The notes beneath the pieces were generated by a model. It saw nothing but the letters and a program-made list of their open reading frames with translations. It did not search any database and was not told the DNA's origin. Shown piece by piece: positions 4,080 through 30,644 of a stretch of 32,000 nt of DNA (position 1 is its first letter; each line of letters opens with the position of its first letter). Where the stretch lies: assembly GCA_963699255.1 (NCBI GenBank), contig OY969425.1, forward strand, positions 1,530,001 through 1,562,000, in the 5' to 3' direction. Both the position numbers and the translations under genes were made by a program. The DNA comes from an uncultured bacterium (lineage in GTDB: Bacteria; Margulisbacteria; WOR-1; CAVSGV01).

Positions 4080-4436
4080 GGGGGTGTAAGGGTTTTGACG
4101 GGAAAGCGGGGGACCGGGTTGCGAGCCAAGGATGATACTGTCCTTGTAAAAACGTATCAAAACACAAACGCAAATCAAGAATTTGCACTTGCTGCCTAAT
4201 AAATAACGGCGGCTTCGTCTCTTAGGCCTCTTTCGGCAGGGCTTAAATAGACGTTATTTTGCCGGATACTGTTCTGCCCTGTTTGTGGAGCAGAATGGGA
4301 AAACTTTCATAAACTAGCGTAAGATGCGCCCCGCCTTGGGCATATTCTTAAGCGAACTAAAATATAAAGGACACGCTCGTAGTAACCTGATCTTATGCTT
4401 TTTCGGACGAGGGTTCGACTCCCTCCACCTCCACCA
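4080..4436 (+). ncRNA. ssrA: tmRNA (SsrA), 357 nt
   Basis: 5' GGGGGTGTAAGGGTTTTGACGGG and 3' GGACGAGGGTTCGACTCCCTCCACCTCCACCA. The 7-bp acceptor stem GGGGGUG/CACCUCC includes the G3-U pair, and a T-arm GAGGG-TTCGACT-CCCTC is present. The tag reading frame ends GCA AAT CAA GAA TTT GCA CTT GCT GCC TAA TAA (..ANQEFALAA**, 4170-4202); the resume codon is uncertain. Confidence 0.9.
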
Positions 4437-10995: not shown

Positions 10996-11445
10996 ATGAA
11001 TGAAAAAGAATTTGTGGACCAATGCTTCTCCAACAAACTGCACGGCGTTCCCGACACTATAAGCTCTTTAACGAAAGTTGTTGATGATATTACCTATATG
11101 CTTACTACTCCGGGCCTGATAAATATAACCAGAGAAGATATAAAGGAGATCGCTGATTCAAGTAAACATCTACTGGGCATCTCTGCGGAAGCAAAAGGGA
11201 GATATCGCGCGGAAACGGTGGGGCATGAGCTGGTCTCTCATTACTCAAGCGCTTTCAGCACTAAAGCAGATAGCGCTATTTTCAATGTGACCGGCAGCTC
11301 GGACCTTACATTGTACGAGGTCAACGAAATAGCCGAACAGATCTATCGCGTGGTCCATCCCAGAGCCAATTTTGTTTTTAGCGCAATAATCGACGAGAGT
11401 AAGAAGGATTATCTGAAAACGACAGTGATATTAGGGAATAATTAG
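10996..11445 (+). CDS. FtsZ C-terminal-domain-only protein (lacks the N-terminal GTP-binding domain)
   Basis: 149 aa. ..TTPGLINITREDIKEI...GISAEAKGRYRAETVGHELVS....ADSAIFNVTGSSDLTLYEVNEIAEQIYRVVHPRANFVFSAIIDESKKDYLKTTVILG is collinear with E. coli FtsZ ..TRPGLMNVDFADVRTVM...GSGVASGEDRAEEAAEMAIS...ARGVLVNITAGFDLRLDEFETVGNTIRAF...ATVVIGTSLDP..DELRVTVVATG (from memory). An SD (GAGGTGAGGG) and a TATAAT box lie upstream. Confidence 0.65.
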   Translation: MNEKEFVDQCFSNKLHGVPDTISSLTKVVDDITYMLTTPGLINITREDIKEIADSSKHLLGISAEAKGRYRAETVGHELVSHYSSAFSTKADSAIFNVTGSSDLTLYEVNEIAEQIYRVVHPRANFVFSAIIDESKKDYLKTTVILGNN

Positions 11446-11623
11446 AGCAAAGGGAAGGAAGAAGGCAGAAGTAAGAAGTAAGAAGGCTGAAGGATGAAAG
11501 AAGAAGTAAAAAGAAGCGGGTAGCAGAAGAAGAGAAAAAAGGAGAAGGCGGAAGGGAAAAGGCAGAAGGAAGAAGTAAGAAAGAAGAAATAAGAAGGACG
11601 AAGTAAGAAGGCAGAAGGGGAAA
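11446..11623 (+). repeat. ~180-nt almost pure purine tract made of degenerate GAAGNNN heptamers
   Basis: For example GAAGGCG GAAGGGA AAAGGCA GAAGGAA GAAGTAA GAAAGAA GAAATAA GAAGGAC GAAGTAA GAAGGCA GAAGGGG. It forms the left arm of the inverted repeat around the four-helix-bundle gene. Confidence 0.85.
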
Positions 11624-11986
11624 TCATATAAGATGACTGGAAGGATTTGATTTGGCGGTCTTAAGAGAGGCGACGATTATCGAAGTTATCTCGTTTGCCT
11701 CATCCAGCAAGGGCCGGACCTTTTCAGCAGGGATAAGACAACTTTCAATTATTAACTCAAGCCAATAGATCGTCTCATCCGCCTCTTCCAAAACTATCCC
11801 AAGCTTTGCGATGAACTCGACTTTTGACCTCGCCCTTAAACAGGCCCTGTAATTAGCTCCAATTGATGTGGCCGACCTTATTATCTGTTTAGCAATGACA
11901 AAAGAGGTGGTGTTTTTTGGCAGATCATTGGTGAACTTGATTATCTTTAGCGCAAACCTCTTTGTCCGGTCTTTTATCGTCTCCAT
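11624..11986 (-). CDS. four-helix-bundle protein (23S rRNA intervening-sequence protein family, PF05635/TIGR02436-like)
   Basis: 120 aa. ..IIRSATSIGANYRACLRARSKVEFIAKLGIVLEEADETIYWLELI.. matches the family signature S.GANY.EA..R.S..DF..KL.I...E..ET.YWL.L. Confidence 0.85.
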   Translation of the reverse strand: METIKDRTKRFALKIIKFTNDLPKNTTSFVIAKQIIRSATSIGANYRACLRARSKVEFIAKLGIVLEEADETIYWLELIIESCLIPAEKVRPLLDEANEITSIIVASLKTAKSNPSSHLI

Positions 11987-12016
11987 GATCTCTTCTCCCT
12001 CATTCTCATTTCATAT

Positions 12017-12107
12017 TTCTAACTTCTAACTTCTAACTTCTAACTTCTAACTTCTAACTTCTAACTTCTAACTTCTAACTTCTAACTTCTAACTTCTTAT
12101 TTCTTAC
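12017..12107 (+). repeat. tandem heptamer TTCTAAC x11 perfect, then TTCTTAT and TTCTTAC
   Basis: Direct count from 12017 to 12093. The complement reads GAAGTTA, one mismatch per unit from the GAAGTAA units of 11446-11623. Confidence 0.95.
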
Positions 12108-12646
12108 TTTATAAACCCGATCTTGCTTGGCTTTCCTGTTTTCTCAATGGTCAACTTTCGAATATCTCGTACGAGCTCGCGAATGTCGCTATCATGCTTC
12201 AAAACTCGCTTTTCCAGCTGCTCGAACTTTACGGACAATTCCTTGCTGTTCGCCATTATTTGGCGAAGCCGTGAAAATGTCCTCATTATCAGTATGTTTA
12301 CATCTATTGCTCTTTGGCTGTTTAGGACAGATGACAGCATGAGGATCCCGTGTTCCGTAAAGGCATAGGGAAGATAGCGCCTGCCGCCATATTTTAAGGC
12401 CACAAATTGTGACCTTGAACTTGAGGTTGCAAAATGCAACCTCAAGTTTTCCGCTTCATCCCTGGTTAATTGGAACATAAAATCTTCAGGGAACCTTTTT
12501 ATGTTTCTCCTAATCTGTTGATTTAGATACTTTGTTAATACTCCATAGAGGCCTGCTAAATCCATATCCAGCATCACTTTTTGCCCGCGGATGACATATA
12601 TCTTATTTTCGATCAATTCGATCGGAACTATTTCCATTTCATTCAT
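12104..12646 (-). CDS. ORF6N (KilA-N-like) domain DNA-binding protein
   Basis: IRGQKVMLDMDLAGLYGV.TKYLNQQIRRNIKRFPEDFMFQL...RSQFVALKYGGRRYLPYAFTEHGILMLSSVLNS.RAI.VNI.IMR.F. I chose the start at M14 (12646) because AAGGAG lies 8 nt upstream. Confidence 0.8.
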   Translation of the reverse strand: MNEMEIVPIELIENKIYVIRGQKVMLDMDLAGLYGVLTKYLNQQIRRNIKRFPEDFMFQLTRDEAENLRLHFATSSSRSQFVALKYGGRRYLPYAFTEHGILMLSSVLNSQRAIDVNILIMRTFSRLRQIMANSKELSVKFEQLEKRVLKHDSDIRELVRDIRKLTIEKTGKPSKIGFIK

Positions 12647-12756
12647 GATAATTGCTCCTTTTACGATAGTATCAGCAATTAACATGCCAGGAAAGTGAAC
12701 TCAAGTATTTATATTTGTTGTTGGGGGATTCGACAGTTGTAGAGGATTAAGGCAGA

Positions 12757-12857
12757 GGAGGAGACCAGAGATCAGAGACCTGAGACCTGAGACAAGAGAC
12801 CAGAGACTAGAGACCTGAGACCCGAAATCTGATCTCCGGTCTCCAGTCTCTAATCTC
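12757..12857 (+). repeat. heptamer-built hairpin: (AGACNNG)x9 left arm, shorter complementary right arm CTGATCTCCGGTCTCCAGTCTCTAATCTC
   Basis: The sequence splits as AGACCAG AGATCAG AGACCTG AGACCTG AGACAAG AGACCAG AGACTAG AGACCTG AGACCCG / ATCTCCG GTCTCCA GTCTCTA ATCTCAT. The right arm resembles 14547-14576. Confidence 0.8.
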
Positions 12858-25942: not shown

Positions 25943-26458
25943 ATGTTGTTTGGGTCCAGGTTTAATGGAAATTCGCCGATGAGATTTTTCAAGATATTCA
26001 TGCTTCCTTTCAAATTCCATCCAACCAGATCTGTTGTTATGGAAGGAGAAGGGAGCCTGTCCAAGACATTCTCTTTTAATGATGAAACTAAAAGATTGAT
26101 CATGGGAGTCAGGGCGCATACAATGCCGGATAACTCGGAAAGGCTTAGAAAAGGATTGATCAATTTCGAAAAAAAGGAAATGATCTTGGGTGAGGAGGAT
26201 AAGCATGAAAAGATCGCCAAGAGATATAACCTCCAAATCAGGACAGTTGATGAAAAAAACAATCCCCAAACATTTCTCCAAAAAGGCTGGTACGGGTTCT
26301 CCATAGATTGCAGTAATATTGAAGCAAGCATTGTGTTTTTTAACCGGAAAAGCGGTTATTACGGCAGTATCCCAGGAAAATACGCGCCTGCTTTTGAGGC
26401 CCTAATGATAGAATTGTTTCATGATTATATTGAGGAATATGCATTTACAAATGTATAA
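25943..26458 (+). CDS. hypothetical protein, paralog P1 of an unrecognised family
   Basis: 171 aa with a GGAGGTG SD. It shares GLINF...M.L, KGWYGFS.DC and IPGKYA..FE with P2-P4. Confidence 0.65.
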   Translation: MLFGSRFNGNSPMRFFKIFMLPFKFHPTRSVVMEGEGSLSKTFSFNDETKRLIMGVRAHTMPDNSERLRKGLINFEKKEMILGEEDKHEKIAKRYNLQIRTVDEKNNPQTFLQKGWYGFSIDCSNIEASIVFFNRKSGYYGSIPGKYAPAFEALMIELFHDYIEEYAFTNV

Positions 26459-26517
26459 GGATTATTATCACAAGGCCTCCTTAAGCGATATAACAAGATA
26501 AATGCTTTCCTATAATA

Positions 26518-26523
26518 TATAAT
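26518..26523 (+). promoter_or_regulatory. candidate -10 box (TATAAT; a second one at 26511-26516) 8 nt upstream of the ATG at 26532; no SD
   Basis: The sequence reads CCTATAATATATAATCAGCTTGTATG. Confidence 0.3.
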
Positions 26524-26531
26524 CAGCTTGT

Positions 26532-27095
26532 ATGCCTGAAAATGCCATTAAACAGCGGCTTGAGGACATTAACGCGATATCGATCGCCATAGACACTTAT
26601 GACGATATATTCTCGGACTTCGATCCGCGCGACCTGACGCAGAGGGACCTTTCGGAGGACTTCATCATAGAGATCACAAGGCGCCACAGGCAGGACATAA
26701 AGGGTAAATATGACGTTGTGCTTGTGGCCCCGAAGTCGATAGAGGACCCCGTCGCGGAAAAGAAGATAATCTCCAGGCTTAACAGGTACTTCAACCAGAA
26801 ACACGCGAGATATGTGAAGGCGATACACGAGATACGGATAAGGGGGCTTATCTACATCGCCTCCGGCATGGCGCTGCTTATCGCGCTTACCCTCCTTACA
26901 TATTATAGGAAGCTGGATACCCTTACCCGCGAGATAGCCGGGATCATGTTCATGCCGCTGGGATGGTTCGGCATCTGGGAGGGCTTTTCAAAGATCGTGG
27001 ACATACCGTTCAAGCTTGAGAGCGACACGCAGGTGTACAGGAAGCTTGCCCGTGCCGCGTACAAATTTGACCACATCGGAGAAGCGAAAAAGTAA
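26532..27095 (+). CDS. hypothetical membrane protein (soluble N-terminal half, then two closely spaced TM helices)
   Basis: 187 aa. The hydrophobic segments are GLIYIASGMALLIALTLLTYY and IAGIMFMPLGWFGIWEGF. Its GC content is visibly higher than that of the flanking paralogs. Confidence 0.6.
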   Translation: MPENAIKQRLEDINAISIAIDTYDDIFSDFDPRDLTQRDLSEDFIIEITRRHRQDIKGKYDVVLVAPKSIEDPVAEKKIISRLNRYFNQKHARYVKAIHEIRIRGLIYIASGMALLIALTLLTYYRKLDTLTREIAGIMFMPLGWFGIWEGFSKIVDIPFKLESDTQVYRKLARAAYKFDHIGEAKK

Positions 27096-27178
27096 CCTTC
27101 GGAAGCACCCCGTTGATATTGAACATCTGCTGAAATTTTGGCCTCAAATATCCGATAATCCTTCAGGAGGCATCCTTA

Positions 27179-27783
27179 ATGAGAGCAAGTAAAATTGATG
27201 TAAATAAGCTTGCCATGCGCGTTATGCCGCAAAAAATGCCGGCTCGGCGCTGTAAGATCGCTGACATAAAGATCAATTTTGACGCGCTTACAGGATCTGT
27301 ACTTGAAAAGATCGGGTCCGGAACGATGCGCGATTTTTTTCCGGTTTGATAAATTTCAGGTCAGGCCAGATAACTCTAATGAGCTCAGATAGTCACAGGG
27401 AGCTGTTCCAGTTGAAAAAGCTGGTGATGAGCAAAAAAAACCCAATAAGCGGCTGGTATGGTTTCCGTGTCAGTTATTATGATTTTTACCGGAAGATCAT
27501 AACAATTTCCCCGGGCAACGCGCAATTTCCCAGGATACCGATAAAATTCTCTTCGGTTTTTGAGCGCCGCATGAATGAACTGTTTGGAGAAAAAGCGGCC
27601 ATGATACTATTCCAGCAGATGAGTTATGACAGGGGTCTATCCAAGGGAGAACAAGAACGCTGGCAGACCGTTCTACAAGCGAACAACATGTTGCTGGTGA
27701 CAGAGAGCATATCAAATGACGATCTAAGAAAGATCGTCCATAAAATATCAAAACATCCTAATCCCTCAATTTTGTTGAAATAA
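27179..27783 (+). pseudogene. paralog P2 of the unrecognised family, with a single-base frameshift near 27318-27325 (or a sequencing error)
   Basis: The ATG at 27179 follows AGGAGG. Frame A reads MRASKIDVNKLAMRVMPQKMPARRCKIADIKINFDALTGSVLEKIGSG, then frame B reads NDARFFSGLINFRSGQITLMSS... Joined, the two are collinear with P4 LTGSIVEKIRAQSDVSIIKGLINF. The 605-nt length is 3n+2. Confidence 0.65.
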
Positions 27784-27857
27784 ACTGAAATTTCGCTCTC
27801 ATAATGACGATAATAGGCATGTAGCGGTTGGAACATTGGCTTTAGGAGGTAATATTT

Positions 27858-28400
27858 ATGGATATTAGAGCAGTTAAAGACAGCTTTTTATTCTGTCAAA
27901 CGTTTAACAAAAAATTAAATATCAGTTTTCCAAATCCATCGACAAAGGCGGTTTTTGACAAGATCGGCGTTCAAAGCGATCTGAAGCATGTTACCGGCAT
28001 GATCAATTTTAGATTACGCCAGATGCATCTTATGGAATCCGGCTGTCACGAAGATCTGGCAAAACAAGAAGGTTTACAGGTAAGCACATTTGTTTTAAAA
28101 AAGGGTTGGTTTCCTTTTAGCCTGAACTGTGCCGATATCCATTCGGGTCTTCTGGAGGTGTCTACCTTTAGCAGCCCATTCGGCGGGATGCCCATAAAGT
28201 ACTCTTCGATCTTTGAAAAAAGCATTAAGGGGTTATTCGGCAGTAAAGCGGACAGGATCTTATTCCTGCAAATGGGTTATGAGAGGGGCATATCTGACGC
28301 TGAAAAAGCGGATTGGACCAAAATTTTACGCTCCAGAGACATGTTGTGGGCGTCGACAAGCCTGTCAAATTATGAAATAGAAAAATTTCTTCTCAAATAA
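27858..28400 (+). CDS. hypothetical protein, paralog P3
   Basis: 180 aa with an AGGAGG SD. Motifs: GMINFRLRQMHL, KKGWFPFSLNC, MPIKYSSIFEKSIKGLFGSKADRILFLQMGYERGISDAEK. Confidence 0.7.
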   Translation: MDIRAVKDSFLFCQTFNKKLNISFPNPSTKAVFDKIGVQSDLKHVTGMINFRLRQMHLMESGCHEDLAKQEGLQVSTFVLKKGWFPFSLNCADIHSGLLEVSTFSSPFGGMPIKYSSIFEKSIKGLFGSKADRILFLQMGYERGISDAEKADWTKILRSRDMLWASTSLSNYEIEKFLLK

Positions 28401-28487
28401 TTGATCTATATGTTCTGAAAAGTCTTGAAATATCGCTTTTGTATTTGGAGATGTGAGCATAGAAAGGCATGAAAAGGAAAAACGTAT

Positions 28488-29057
28488 ATGGTTCATACGG
28501 TAAAGATAAAAGGCGTCAAATTCAACACCTGCAAATTCTTTTGCGAAAAAGCGGTCCCTCTTAGAACGATCCTCAAGAACCTGAAAACAATAAAATATGA
28601 CGTAAACGGGGGGACCACAGATCGCATCGAAGACCATTCTAATATAAAGCTCCAATACGATAAGTTAACGGGATCCATCGTTGAAAAAATACGGGCTCAA
28701 AGTGACGTGTCGATCATCAAAGGGTTGATCAATTTTAAAACAGGCGGGATGCATCTGGGTGAAGTGAAAGAGGCCGAGTATCTGGCAAAGCAAAAAAGAC
28801 TTCTAAAAAGCGAAATAGCTTTAAAGGAGGGATGGTATCCCTTTGTCTTGGATTGCAGCTATGTAAAGGCGGGAGTTCTTCTGGTGAGCCCGTTCAGCGA
28901 TGTGTTCGGAGGAATTCCAGCTGAATATTCTTCCATTTTTGAAAGCCATATAAGGGGTTTATTCGGCGATAAAGTGGAAAACATCTCTTTTTTAAGGATG
29001 TATTATCGGGGAAACGTGCCGCAGGATAATACGTCGAATAAAACACACTCCCTGTGA
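28488..29057 (+). CDS. hypothetical protein, paralog P4
   Basis: 189 aa. Motifs: GLINFKTGGMHL, KEGWYPFVLDC, IPAEYSSIFESHIRGLFGDK. Confidence 0.65.
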   Translation: MVHTVKIKGVKFNTCKFFCEKAVPLRTILKNLKTIKYDVNGGTTDRIEDHSNIKLQYDKLTGSIVEKIRAQSDVSIIKGLINFKTGGMHLGEVKEAEYLAKQKRLLKSEIALKEGWYPFVLDCSYVKAGVLLVSPFSDVFGGIPAEYSSIFESHIRGLFGDKVENISFLRMYYRGNVPQDNTSNKTHSL

Positions 29058-29115: not shown

Positions 29116-29277
29116 ATGGTCAAAAACTTCCTCATAAAAACCTACGGCCCCGACACTCCCGACACCGTGGTCGGGACAAGTTCGGTCGGGGCAAGCTGCC
29201 ACCCTCCTGCGCTGAAGCTTCCGCCTTCGCCAAGGCTTCGGCGGACAAGTCGTAGGGCAGGGATGAACGATCTATGA
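29116..29277 (+). other. 53-codon upstream ORF / structured GC-rich leader of miaB; its first 11 codons mimic the MiaB N-terminus
   Basis: MVKNFLIKTYGPDTPDTVVG... compared with MiaB MKYFIKTYGCQMN. The stop TGA overlaps the miaB ATG (ATGA at 29274-29277). The nested hairpins read CCCCGAC..CCCGAC-ACCGTG-GTCGGG..GTCGGGG. Confidence 0.35.
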
Positions 29278-30644
29278 AGTATTTCATCAAAACCTATGGA
29301 TGCCAGATGAATGTTAATGATTCCGAGATGATGGCGGGACTGCTTTCTGAGGCAGGATACGTCCAGGCCGATTCTCCCGGTAGCGCAGATGTCATCCTCA
29401 TCAATACCTGCTGCGTCCGCCAGAGGGCTGAGGATAAAGCGATTGGCTACGCGCTGGGCCTTGTCGCGCCGAAAATGAGAAAGCCGGGTAGGGTGATCGG
29501 GATCATCGGATGCATCGCCGAAAAAGATAAGAACGAGATATTCAAAAAACTGCCGTTCGTAGATCTTGTGGTCGGGCCCGGACAGGAAGCGAGGGTCGTC
29601 CAGCTTATAGAGGAGGTAAAAAGCGGCGGCGAAAAGGCCGCTGTCGTTGGAGATAACTGCGGGGAGTACCCGTCAAGATCGGCAAAAAGGAAACCCTCGG
29701 TGCAGGCGTATGTCACGATCATGTTCGGCTGCGATAATTTCTGCTCATACTGCATCGTTCCGTATGTGAGAGGAAGGGAAAGAAGCCGCCCGGCAAAAGA
29801 CATAATAGGGGAGATCGAAGAGCTTGATAAAAGTATTTATAAAGAAATAGTTTTGCTGGGGCAGAACGTAAACAACTACAGAGATGCGACAATTGGTACC
29901 CGCAGAGACGAGCTCTGCTCTTCAAATGTTGAGAGCGGAGTTTATCTCCGCGAACAATTGCCTACAGCTTCCGGAACTTATGGATTAGCAGAGTTGTTGA
30001 GGGATGTCCACAAAATTGACGGCGTTGAACGCATACGGTTCTTAACTTCCCATCCACGCGATATGTCAGATGATATCATCGATGCGGTGAGCGACCTGCC
30101 CAAGGTCTGCGAATATTTCCACATCCCTCTGCAGTCCGGCGATGATGAGATACTTAAAAGGATGAACAGGGGATATACTTCCGGCCAGTTCAGGGAGCTG
30201 GTCAGGAGGATCAGGTTAAAGATCCCCGAAGCGGCGATCACTTCCGATGCTATTGCGGGATTCCCCGGCGAGACGGATGAGCAATTCAAACATACGCTCG
30301 ATCTTATCTCCGAACTTGAGCTCGACCTTGTCAATACTTTTTCATATTCAACGCGTCCCGGCACGCCTGCGGCAAAAATGGACGGCCAGATCGACGAAAA
30401 AGCAAAAAAAGAAAGGCTTCAGGCGCTTATGAAAGTTGTTGAGGGGACTGCATTAAGAAAAAATCAGGGATTGATGGGGACCATCCAGGAGGTCCTTATA
30501 GATTCCAGTTCAAAGGACGGGCTTACTGGAAGAACGAGGGGAAATAAGATCGTTCAGGTCGACGGGGCGGATGGAGCGGTCGGGAAACTCCTGAAAGTGA
30601 AGATCACAGGCGCCAGCGCGTGGGGATTGAAGGCGAGTATGTAA
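29274..30644 (+). CDS. miaB: tRNA-2-methylthio-N6-dimethylallyladenosine synthase (radical SAM methylthiotransferase)
   Basis: 456 aa with KTYGCQMN, INTCCVR, GCDNFCSYCIVPYVRGRERS (CxxxCxxC) and a C-terminal TRAM-like region. Confidence 0.9.
   Translation: MKYFIKTYGCQMNVNDSEMMAGLLSEAGYVQADSPGSADVILINTCCVRQRAEDKAIGYALGLVAPKMRKPGRVIGIIGCIAEKDKNEIFKKLPFVDLVVGPGQEARVVQLIEEVKSGGEKAAVVGDNCGEYPSRSAKRKPSVQAYVTIMFGCDNFCSYCIVPYVRGRERSRPAKDIIGEIEELDKSIYKEIVLLGQNVNNYRDATIGTRRDELCSSNVESGVYLREQLPTASGTYGLAELLRDVHKIDGVERIRFLTSHPRDMSDDIIDAVSDLPKVCEYFHIPLQSGDDEILKRMNRGYTSGQFRELVRRIRLKIPEAAITSDAIAGFPGETDEQFKHTLDLISELELDLVNTFSYSTRPGTPAAKMDGQIDEKAKKERLQALMKVVEGTALRKNQGLMGTIQEVLIDSSSKDGLTGRTRGNKIVQVDGADGAVGKLLKVKITGASAWGLKASM

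Follow-up and report, generated by a model that had tools for sequence, protein, structure and literature searches.

A tandem array of paralogs of an undescribed protein family beside miaB in uncultured Margulisbacteria

Introduction

Immunity-protein arrays of polymorphic-toxin systems, such as those of the SUKH and Imm type, encode small cytoplasmic proteins in tandem on one strand and occupy a slot that varies between related genomes. Their copies diverge rapidly, change in number and are replaced as cassettes between close strains. These features are shared by the subject of this work, an array of four paralogous genes, P1 to P4, located at positions 25943 to 29057 of a stretch of 32,000 nucleotides (nt) of an uncultured bacterium (GTDB lineage Bacteria; Margulisbacteria; WOR-1; CAVSGV01), which is referred to as the window (NCBI GenBank assembly GCA_963699255.1, contig OY969425.1, positions 1,530,001 to 1,562,000 of the forward strand). 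Margulisbacteria are a sister phylum of Cyanobacteria. In contrast to immunity arrays, no toxin gene and no gene for Rhs, contact-dependent inhibition (CDI), type VI or type VII secretion (T6SS/T7SS) or any other secretion system lies near the array in any of the loci examined, the ancestral state of the family appears to be a single copy in a conserved housekeeping neighbourhood, and several polar residues are conserved family-wide.

The folds that come closest are those of the ADF-H (cofilin) and gelsolin domains. These resemble the predicted family domain in size (about 125–140 amino acids, aa), in the succession of their four helices and five main strands, and in a long third helix that follows a Ser-Pro-containing loop. 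They are unrelated to it in sequence, and the structural matches have TM-scores below 0.5 and a root mean square deviation (rmsd) of about 7 Å; the family invariants GLxN, H..LA, WxGF, SPxS..G.IP and FE are without counterpart in ADF-H, and the family occurs in a bacterium that is not known to possess actin. A further, loose resemblance to the sensor domains XylR_N and V4R of aromatic-responsive regulators was put forward in a preliminary description of the array, which was made from the DNA letters alone. Here the likeness lies in a short stretch, ..ADRILFLQMGYERGISDAE.., that resembles part of the XylR_N profile, and in the small soluble proteins without obvious catalytic signature; unlike those regulators, the family has no AAA+ or helix-turn-helix (HTH) output domain.

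P1 to P4 are protein-coding genes and true paralogs, and their family had not been described before. They represent a solid new orphan family with a legible history.

The array and its paralogs

All genes of the array are encoded on the forward strand. P1 (25943–26458, 171 aa) is followed by the gene of a 187-aa membrane protein (26532–27095), which is not a member of the paralog family and is called the 2-TM gene after the two transmembrane (TM) helices originally ascribed to its product, by P2 (27179–27349 and 27346–27783, two overlapping frames giving 201 aa once restored), by P3 (27858–28400, 180 aa) and by P4 (28488–29057, 189 aa). The list of open reading frames (ORFs) reproduces the coordinates of the preliminary description, and the intergenic gaps of 73–87 nt reported there are confirmed from them. 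On the 5' side the array is flanked by a divergently transcribed PBP(PEBP)/YajQ gene pair and on the 3' side by miaB (29274–30644, forward strand), which encodes a tRNA methylthiotransferase; both flanks had been named before and are upheld by domain matches and, for miaB, by 73% identity to a gene of the related locus L003 with UPF0004, Radical_SAM and TRAM domains. The GC content is 0.35–0.45 in the paralogs, 0.47–0.52 in the 2-TM gene and 0.50–0.57 in the flanks.

In a MAFFT alignment P1 to P4 show pairwise identities of 28–39% and 17 invariant columns, and the motifs G[LM]INF, GW[YF]xF, [IM]Pxx[YF][SA]xxFE and LF, which had been found by eye, are present. This similarity is not due to chance, because related arrays exist in independent genomes (loci L001, L003, L005 and L012; the protein P0002 matches P3 at E 1.5e-35) and because an exhaustive HMMER profile search of 1.84 billion cluster representatives retrieved 40 family members at E<=1e-3. 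P3 is 55% identical to gene B of L012, and P4 is 57% identical to gene D of L001, with 78% nucleotide identity over 442 nt to that locus. P3 shows the full architecture, in which the core domain stands between a short peptide at the N-terminus and a C-terminal tail. As described earlier, the tail is shared by P2 and P3 and absent from P1 and P4. P4 is of the 'D-type', with a long N-terminal extension and an Ala in place of a conserved His, and P1 consists of the core domain alone, truncated after the predicted strand β5. P1 is also the most diverged copy (26–33% identity to every other one); of the residues typical of the family core, it retains G, N, H, W, F, P and FE. The divergent termini noted in the preliminary description are borne out both by the alignment and by sliding-window values of dN/dS, the ratio of nonsynonymous to synonymous substitution rates, which mark the N- and C-terminal parts as the most divergent ones.

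The paralogs are free of TM segments, the maximum Kyte-Doolittle score over 19 residues being 0.63–1.32, and the three strong Shine-Dalgarno sequences that had been noticed are found as GGAGG 5' of P1 (8 nt from the ATG), P2 and P3, with a weaker AAGGAA 5' of P4. The segment of 718 nt that holds P1 (25813–26530) has no counterpart in L001 or L003 in blastn comparisons.

P2 contains exactly one frameshift, in agreement with the preliminary description. By alignment to an ortholog of 201 aa that is intact and encoded on a contig from a metagenome (L012:164-769) it was placed as a deletion of 1 nt in a G-run (27314–27316), by which G4 became G3. A run of seven T close to the stop (27334–27340) was considered as an alternative site and ruled out, since it is identical in P2 and L012. 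With one G restored, the 201-aa product is 84% identical to the ortholog at a dN/dS of 0.25, and the lesion is therefore very recent or an assembly error; either P2 is a recent pseudogene or the homopolymer was misassembled.

Rarity and search for known families

The family is new in the sense that no known-family model or profile matched in the sequence membership tests. Scans of the paralogs with Pfam and NCBIfam gave no match above noise, the PADLOC models gave none at all and PHROGs returned nothing but noise (E>=0.007). When 43 family sequences were scanned individually with Pfam, P3 being cut to residues 20–145 for this purpose, no shared family was found. Profiles of four and of 43 family sequences had no real match among the PDB sequences, the sole match of the latter being a spurious Fab (E 0.26), and a fold search of BFVD gave nothing under E 0.15. 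The view that the family is an unrecognised one thus holds for Pfam, NCBIfam, PADLOC, PHROGs and the PDB sequences alike, and no confident match to a characterised family appeared in the profile and hidden Markov model (HMM) searches or among the best 50 Foldseek matches.

The family is also rare. A word-indexed search of 5.8 billion proteins yielded nine family proteins, and a scan of metagenome DNA added three further loci only, all of them short. Both members with a named taxon derive from metagenome-assembled genomes (MAGs) of Candidatus Margulisiibacteriota. A tandem, lineage-specific expansion of a family on which all libraries are silent, as first proposed, is supported. No member was detected on viral contigs in an IMG/VR scan, Rfam revealed no riboswitch or leader on the array locus, and the flanks of the array contain no convincing terminal repeats and no integrase gene. 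If these results hold, a well-folded undescribed domain is added to the protein universe that so far has been seen only in uncultured Margulisbacteria.

Predicted fold and conserved residues

The family unit is predicted to be a single α/β domain of about 125 residues. The AlphaFold model of P3 residues 20–145, calculated from 43 sequences, reaches a predicted local distance difference test score (pLDDT) of 96.8 and a predicted template modelling score (pTM) of 0.89, while full-length P3, modelled with AlphaFold2 on the basis of 10 sequences (pLDDT 79), shows a confident core with floppy ends. The predicted order of elements in the P3 core is α1-β1-β2-α2-(short β)-β3-β4-α3-β5, and a Gly/Pro-rich loop, SPxSGxFGxIP, precedes helix α3. 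In most members the core is preceded by a short peptide and followed by a tail that consists of a strand and a helix (..KS[LM]S[DN]xEL..). The proteins are small, cytoplasmic and mostly basic, with an isoelectric point (pI) above 8 in 35 of 43 members and a median of 9.3.

In P3 numbering, G47, N50, H64, L73, L80, W84, F87, P103, G109, P112 and F119 are conserved, and D26, S102, S105, E120, Y141 and R143 are frequent. The polar columns D26, N50, H64, S102/S105, E120, Y141 and R143 are kept in 72–93% of the 43 divergent members, and the conserved His is replaced in four members, by Cys in two of them and by Ala and Ser in one each. The family domain is fused to a C-terminal thioredoxin in P0143, thioredoxin being the only fusion seen in the family, is duplicated in tandem inside one protein in P0141 and is located at the C-terminus of a 496-aa protein in P0160. 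A subfamily of 272–293 aa (among P0156–P0162) is prolonged at the C-terminus by a conserved stretch, the last residues of which are IFGI(T/N/S).

With both P3 models Foldseek returned 215–291 matches in the PDB, and the best 50 are nearly all ADF-H or gelsolin domains, including cofilin, actophorin, GMF, twinfilin, coactosin, drebrin and gelsolin G1/G2. Foldseek assigns probabilities of up to 0.96–0.97 to these matches, which extend over almost the entire domains (120–145 columns) but are weak by the other measures (best E 7e-3, TM-score 0.37–0.47, rmsd ~7 Å). At the level of sequence, homology to ADF-H was ruled out: hhalign gave a probability of 0.09% for the family profile against an ADF/cofilin profile and yielded no alignment to ADF-H at the level of residues, and Pfam Cofilin_ADF (PF00241) and Gelsolin (PF00626) have no match among the 43 family sequences. 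The ADF/cofilin profile was built from four sequences of the cofilin/actophorin/ADF group and validated on PDB cofilins, which it finds at E 1e-65 to 1e-70. In the literature on Margulisbacteria and cofilin or on bacterial ADF-H nothing relevant was found.

Selection and turnover between strains

Values of dN/dS, calculated by the Nei-Gojobori method, are 0.16–0.52 in the family versus 0.03–0.32 in the flanks. Between the window and L001 the flanking genes show a dN of 0.02–0.16 and a dN/dS of 0.04–0.28, and the best family pairs show a dN of 0.29–0.42 and a dN/dS of 0.45–0.52, the upper value being that of P4 and gene D of L001. In close pairs, i.e., genes A and B of L003 versus L005 and P2 versus gene A of L012, dN/dS is 0.16–0.25. 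At the same divergence the dN of the family is 5–20 times that of the 2-TM gene and yajQ. In sliding windows the ratio (omega) rises to ~1 in short windows, which mostly cover the terminal extensions. Purifying selection acts on every copy and marks the genes as functional; the core is constrained, and the extensions evolve almost freely. With dN/dS at 0.16–0.52 and homologs elsewhere, neutral decay is not indicated.

Turnover of the array is visible between closely related strains. L003 and L005 are two contigs of one sample and are 93–100% identical, in windows of 60 nt, over the whole of genes A and B and for ~90 nt into gene C. From there on the identity drops abruptly to 35–70%, L003 having an additional gene D, and it recovers to 92.6% in the 3'-terminal part of this gene, right in front of miaB. 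Judged from these identity profiles, whole distal cassettes appear to be swapped between near-identical strains that occur together. When the window is compared with L012, P2 is 84% identical (dS 0.35), whereas its neighbour P3 reaches no more than 55% identity (dS 1.6), a contrast that indicates a probable replacement by deeply diverged alleles. Tandem, fast-diverging paralogs with turnover at the strain level, as they are required for an immunity array, are therefore found here.

The 2-TM gene and the origin of the array

The protein encoded between P1 and P2 was initially said to have two adjacent TM helices and a visibly higher GC content. The higher GC and the first helix (residues 101–125) are clear, whereas the second (about 133–155) is probable and stays below a simple hydropathy threshold. 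The protein has no Pfam or NCBIfam match and belongs to a family of 413 homologous proteins, with 468 loci in GTDB species-representative genomes, mostly of Omnitrophota. It is 68–72% identical to proteins of Saganbacteria/Margulisiibacteriota and 88–90% identical between array-bearing genomes, at a dN/dS of 0.07–0.17. The former value points to a Margulisbacteria-type host. The invariant motifs of this family are DTYDDIFSDFDP..R.LSEDF and PLGWFG.WEGFS, and it was seen in MAGs of Margulisbacteria, Omnitrophota, Auribacterota and Elusimicrobiota (loci L006, L008 and L013–L092).

When 80 GTDB loci with a 2-TM gene were searched with the HMM of the paralog family, none contained a paralog. As the neighbours vary as well, a role of its product as functional partner of the paralogs is ruled out, and the earlier suggestion that the embedded gene might be such a partner has to be abandoned for a large, slowly evolving family that occurs without paralogs. 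Because it is conserved while its neighbours change from lineage to lineage, the 2-TM gene is a landmark, not a partner, and it stands beside a variable slot. In L013 it is directly followed by miaB, which represents an 'empty site'. In L006/L007 an ABC transporter lies upstream and a 485-aa protein, a BAAT-like hydrolase and a methyltransferase are encoded downstream; in L006 the slot used by the array holds this other cargo. In L008/L009 AbiEii is encoded upstream and an MmeI-like restriction-modification enzyme together with a radical-SAM protein downstream. The presence of AbiEii and of the MmeI-like enzyme beside the 2-TM gene of these distant relatives is reminiscent of immunity arrays, but the genomic context differs.

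Among the array-bearing loci, L001/L002 have the 2-TM gene, four copies and then a radical-SAM gene on the opposite strand, L003 has the 2-TM gene and four copies followed by miaB, and L005 has the 2-TM gene and three copies followed by miaB. The gene on the opposite strand of L001, the closest syntenic relative (11345–12763, reverse strand), 3' of the array, encodes a 472-aa protein with a radical-SAM CxxxCxxC motif (CTNRCKHC) and without Pfam match; in the window miaB is found at this place.

The single-copy, distant member P0139 is 39% identical to P3 in alignment A4. Its gene lies directly 5' of miaB-prs-hom-response regulator-MarC-PvlArgDC-tilS, the same downstream order as in L003/L005, with a different upstream neighbour. 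Because this single-copy gene adjoins miaB in the same order, the ancestral gene probably stood 5' of miaB as well, and amplification in place is the probable origin of the array.

Promoter-like boxes accompany the copies. Upstream of P3 (27785–27814, forward strand) an exact match to the consensus CTGAAATTTCnCTCTCATAnTnnCGATAAT is present, for which 0 chance matches are expected; it reads as a -35-like element, 18 nt and GATAAT. Upstream of P2 (27130–27159, forward strand) the candidate box is CTGAAA-18 nt-GATAAT, supported by a repeat search (D2), a promoter scan and 13 aligned upstream regions, and upstream of P4 (28372–28401, forward strand) a weaker one, ATGAAA-18 nt-AATAAT, belongs to the repeat family D12 and overlaps the end of P3. 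P1 is without such a box. The core of the box also precedes paralogs in L001, L002 and L012, and in the alignment of upstream regions the box stands 5' of most copies in L001, L003 and L012. The single-copy gene of L093 has a sigma-70-like box upstream, TGAAATTTC-13 nt-CGATA, with the same spacing. Each copy is thus probably transcribed on its own. According to the proposed course of events, the ancestral gene would have been amplified in place, together with its promoter, to three or four copies between the 2-TM gene and miaB, and one further degenerate copy would have been displaced across the 2-TM gene; P1 looks like such a displaced, truncated copy. The proposed history is unusually clear, leading from one gene beside miaB by promoter-carrying amplification to cassette swapping between strains of the same sample.

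Possible functions

The reading that we tentatively prefer, as a possibility short of being probable, is that of a diversifying binding or adaptor module, immunity-like in character and under strain-level selection. It is suggested because a conserved patch is combined with variable termini, with own promoters and with exchange between strains. The family domain would act as a binding scaffold, the conserved patch (D26, N50, H64, S102/S105, E120, Y141 and R143 in P3) would recognise one common partner or ligand, and a second specificity, differing from copy to copy, would reside in the variable termini. A pattern of this kind usually marks genes of strain-level interaction, and the locus could offer a way into the ecology of organisms that resist cultivation.

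Several observations weigh against such a module and are the reason why it is advanced with restraint. In the loci examined, the array has no linked gene for a toxin, a partner, a secretion system, a defence system or a mobile element, toxin and toxin-delivery genes being absent from the window and from L001, L003, L005, L004, L010, L093, L095 and L096, and the Pfam models for Imm, SUKH and SuFu as well as PADLOC have no match. Known anti-phage defence is not indicated either, with no PADLOC model match and no occurrence on viral contigs. Single-copy members lie among housekeeping genes, which fits a core cellular role better than conflict, and the conserved polar N, H, D, E, S, Y and R fit an enzyme or cofactor site equally well. 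No pair and no window has a dN/dS clearly above 1, so that positive selection is not demonstrated, and transcription from individual promoters is inferred from consensus scans alone.

A rather unlikely alternative is a housekeeping accessory tied to miaB, tRNA or redox chemistry, whose ancestral gene would be co-expressed with MiaB and whose array would be sub-functionalised; the protein would bind tRNA or help to supply reductant or sulfur. In each of two divergent lineages (window/L003/L005 and L093/L094) miaB is indeed immediately preceded by a family gene of the same orientation, with gaps to miaB of 57–61 nt and with no terminator-like site predicted between P4 and miaB, and the basic character of most members, the fusion to thioredoxin and the conservation of Asn, Glu and His, the last of which is a Cys in two members, would suit such a role. 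However, other single-copy members are found away from miaB (L004, L010, L095, L096 and L097), the sister genomes L013 and L006 keep miaB without an adjoining family gene, and each copy has its own promoter-like box. Cassette replacement and three to four fast-diverging copies would be unusual for a housekeeping cofactor, and a basic pI is common among proteins of AT-biased genes. The same conserved residues could, together with the SPxSGxFGxIP loop, form the small active site of an enzyme, which we regard as unlikely. The retention of the polar columns across divergent members, the replacements of the His, half of them by Cys, and the compatibility of the thioredoxin fusion with a redox-linked reaction speak for it; on the other side there is no sequence match to an enzyme family and no fold match among the best 50 of 215–291, P4 has Ala at the His position and is otherwise well conserved with its ortholog, and three to four fast-diverging tandem copies are atypical for enzymes. 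It is doubtful, too, that the array represents an unseen bacterial branch of cofilin/gelsolin-like proteins used as a diversifiable binding module, with copies under their own promoters that would be exchanged as cassettes between co-occurring strains; if true, the array would represent a hypervariable 'specificity' locus inside the cell of a type not seen before, without tie to any known toxin, defence or secretion system. More specifically, a divergent bacterial member of the cofilin/ADF-H-gelsolin fold could bind a filament-forming actin-fold protein (MreB, FtsA or ParM) and regulate its assembly. The concentration of ADF-H and gelsolin domains among the best 50 matches of both models and the predicted order of helices and strands, which corresponds to that of yeast cofilin, point in this direction, but no match reaches E<=1e-3, the superpositions stay poor even with the model of pLDDT 97, and neither the Pfam models nor the validated profile in hhalign recognise the family, so that this idea is given little credence. 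The ADF-H likeness would bear on the prokaryotic roots of the fold only if a better structure comparison confirms it.

The idea of a small-molecule sensor of the XylR_N/V4R type without an output domain is very improbable. It goes back to the resemblance seen in the preliminary description, and one sub-threshold match can be cited for it: full-length P3 matches Pfam XylR_N with 16.8 bits (cutoff 23; E 0.0056) over 27 residues, 127–153, a stretch that lies outside the confidently folded conserved core motifs and is removed when P3 is cut to residues 20–145. The family as such does not follow, as the scan of the 43 sequences (with P3 so cut) gave no match to XylR_N (PF06505) or V4R (PF02830) at E<=1, despite an ILFxQMxYxR stretch that is common to many of the scanned sequences. 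No solved sensor-domain sequence matches the family profile at E<=10, no aromatic-responsive sensor is among the best 50 of 215–291 Foldseek matches, and the proteins, with 171–201 aa and no further Pfam domain, carry no output module such as a sigma-54 AAA+ or HTH domain. The resemblance, having no backing from family scan, profile or fold, is regarded as chance. Least credible of all is that the array is decaying, functionless lineage-specific DNA, for which the low GC content relative to the flanks, the frameshift of P2, the truncation and displacement of P1 and the rarity of the family could be quoted. This is refuted for the family taken as a whole by intact ORFs in at least four other genomes, by the low dN/dS in all comparisons, including that of the frameshifted P2 itself, by the very confident fold predicted for the core from the 43-sequence alignment and by the conservation of Shine-Dalgarno sites and promoter-like boxes.

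Other features of the window and related loci

In the interval between P4 and miaB (29116–29300) an ORF fragment, MVKNFLIKTYG, repeats the N-terminus of miaB, MKYFIKTYGCQMN. A direct repeat of 16 nt (29132–29147 and 29284–29299) flanks ~136 nt of GC-rich DNA, which is single-copy in the window and contains two strong hairpins (-61.7 kcal/mol, z -2.9). The element looks like a small insertion resembling a miniature inverted-repeat transposable element or a repetitive extragenic palindrome (MITE/REP), which would have produced a target-site duplication in the 5' end of miaB and regenerated its start codon. The window miaB encodes 456 aa versus 436 aa in L003, and in blastn ~90 nt (29885–29978) are unaligned versus ~20 nt in L003, which implies a putative insertion of ~24 residues in that part of the radical-SAM core region that surrounds ..TRRDELCSSNVESGVYLREQLPTASG...

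Further upstream, the window contains a tmRNA gene (4080–4436, forward strand; Rfam 172.7 bits) with the tag peptide ANQEFALAA, and the ~950 nt 3' of it hold no ORF of at least 110 aa. Downstream of PvlArgDC a gene of 116 aa with a weak Pfam match to MamF_MmsF, a family of magnetosome membrane proteins, is a conserved part of the syntenic block in L003 (10526–10876), L005 (16104–16454) and L093 (13187–13537); its product is probably a generic small membrane protein.

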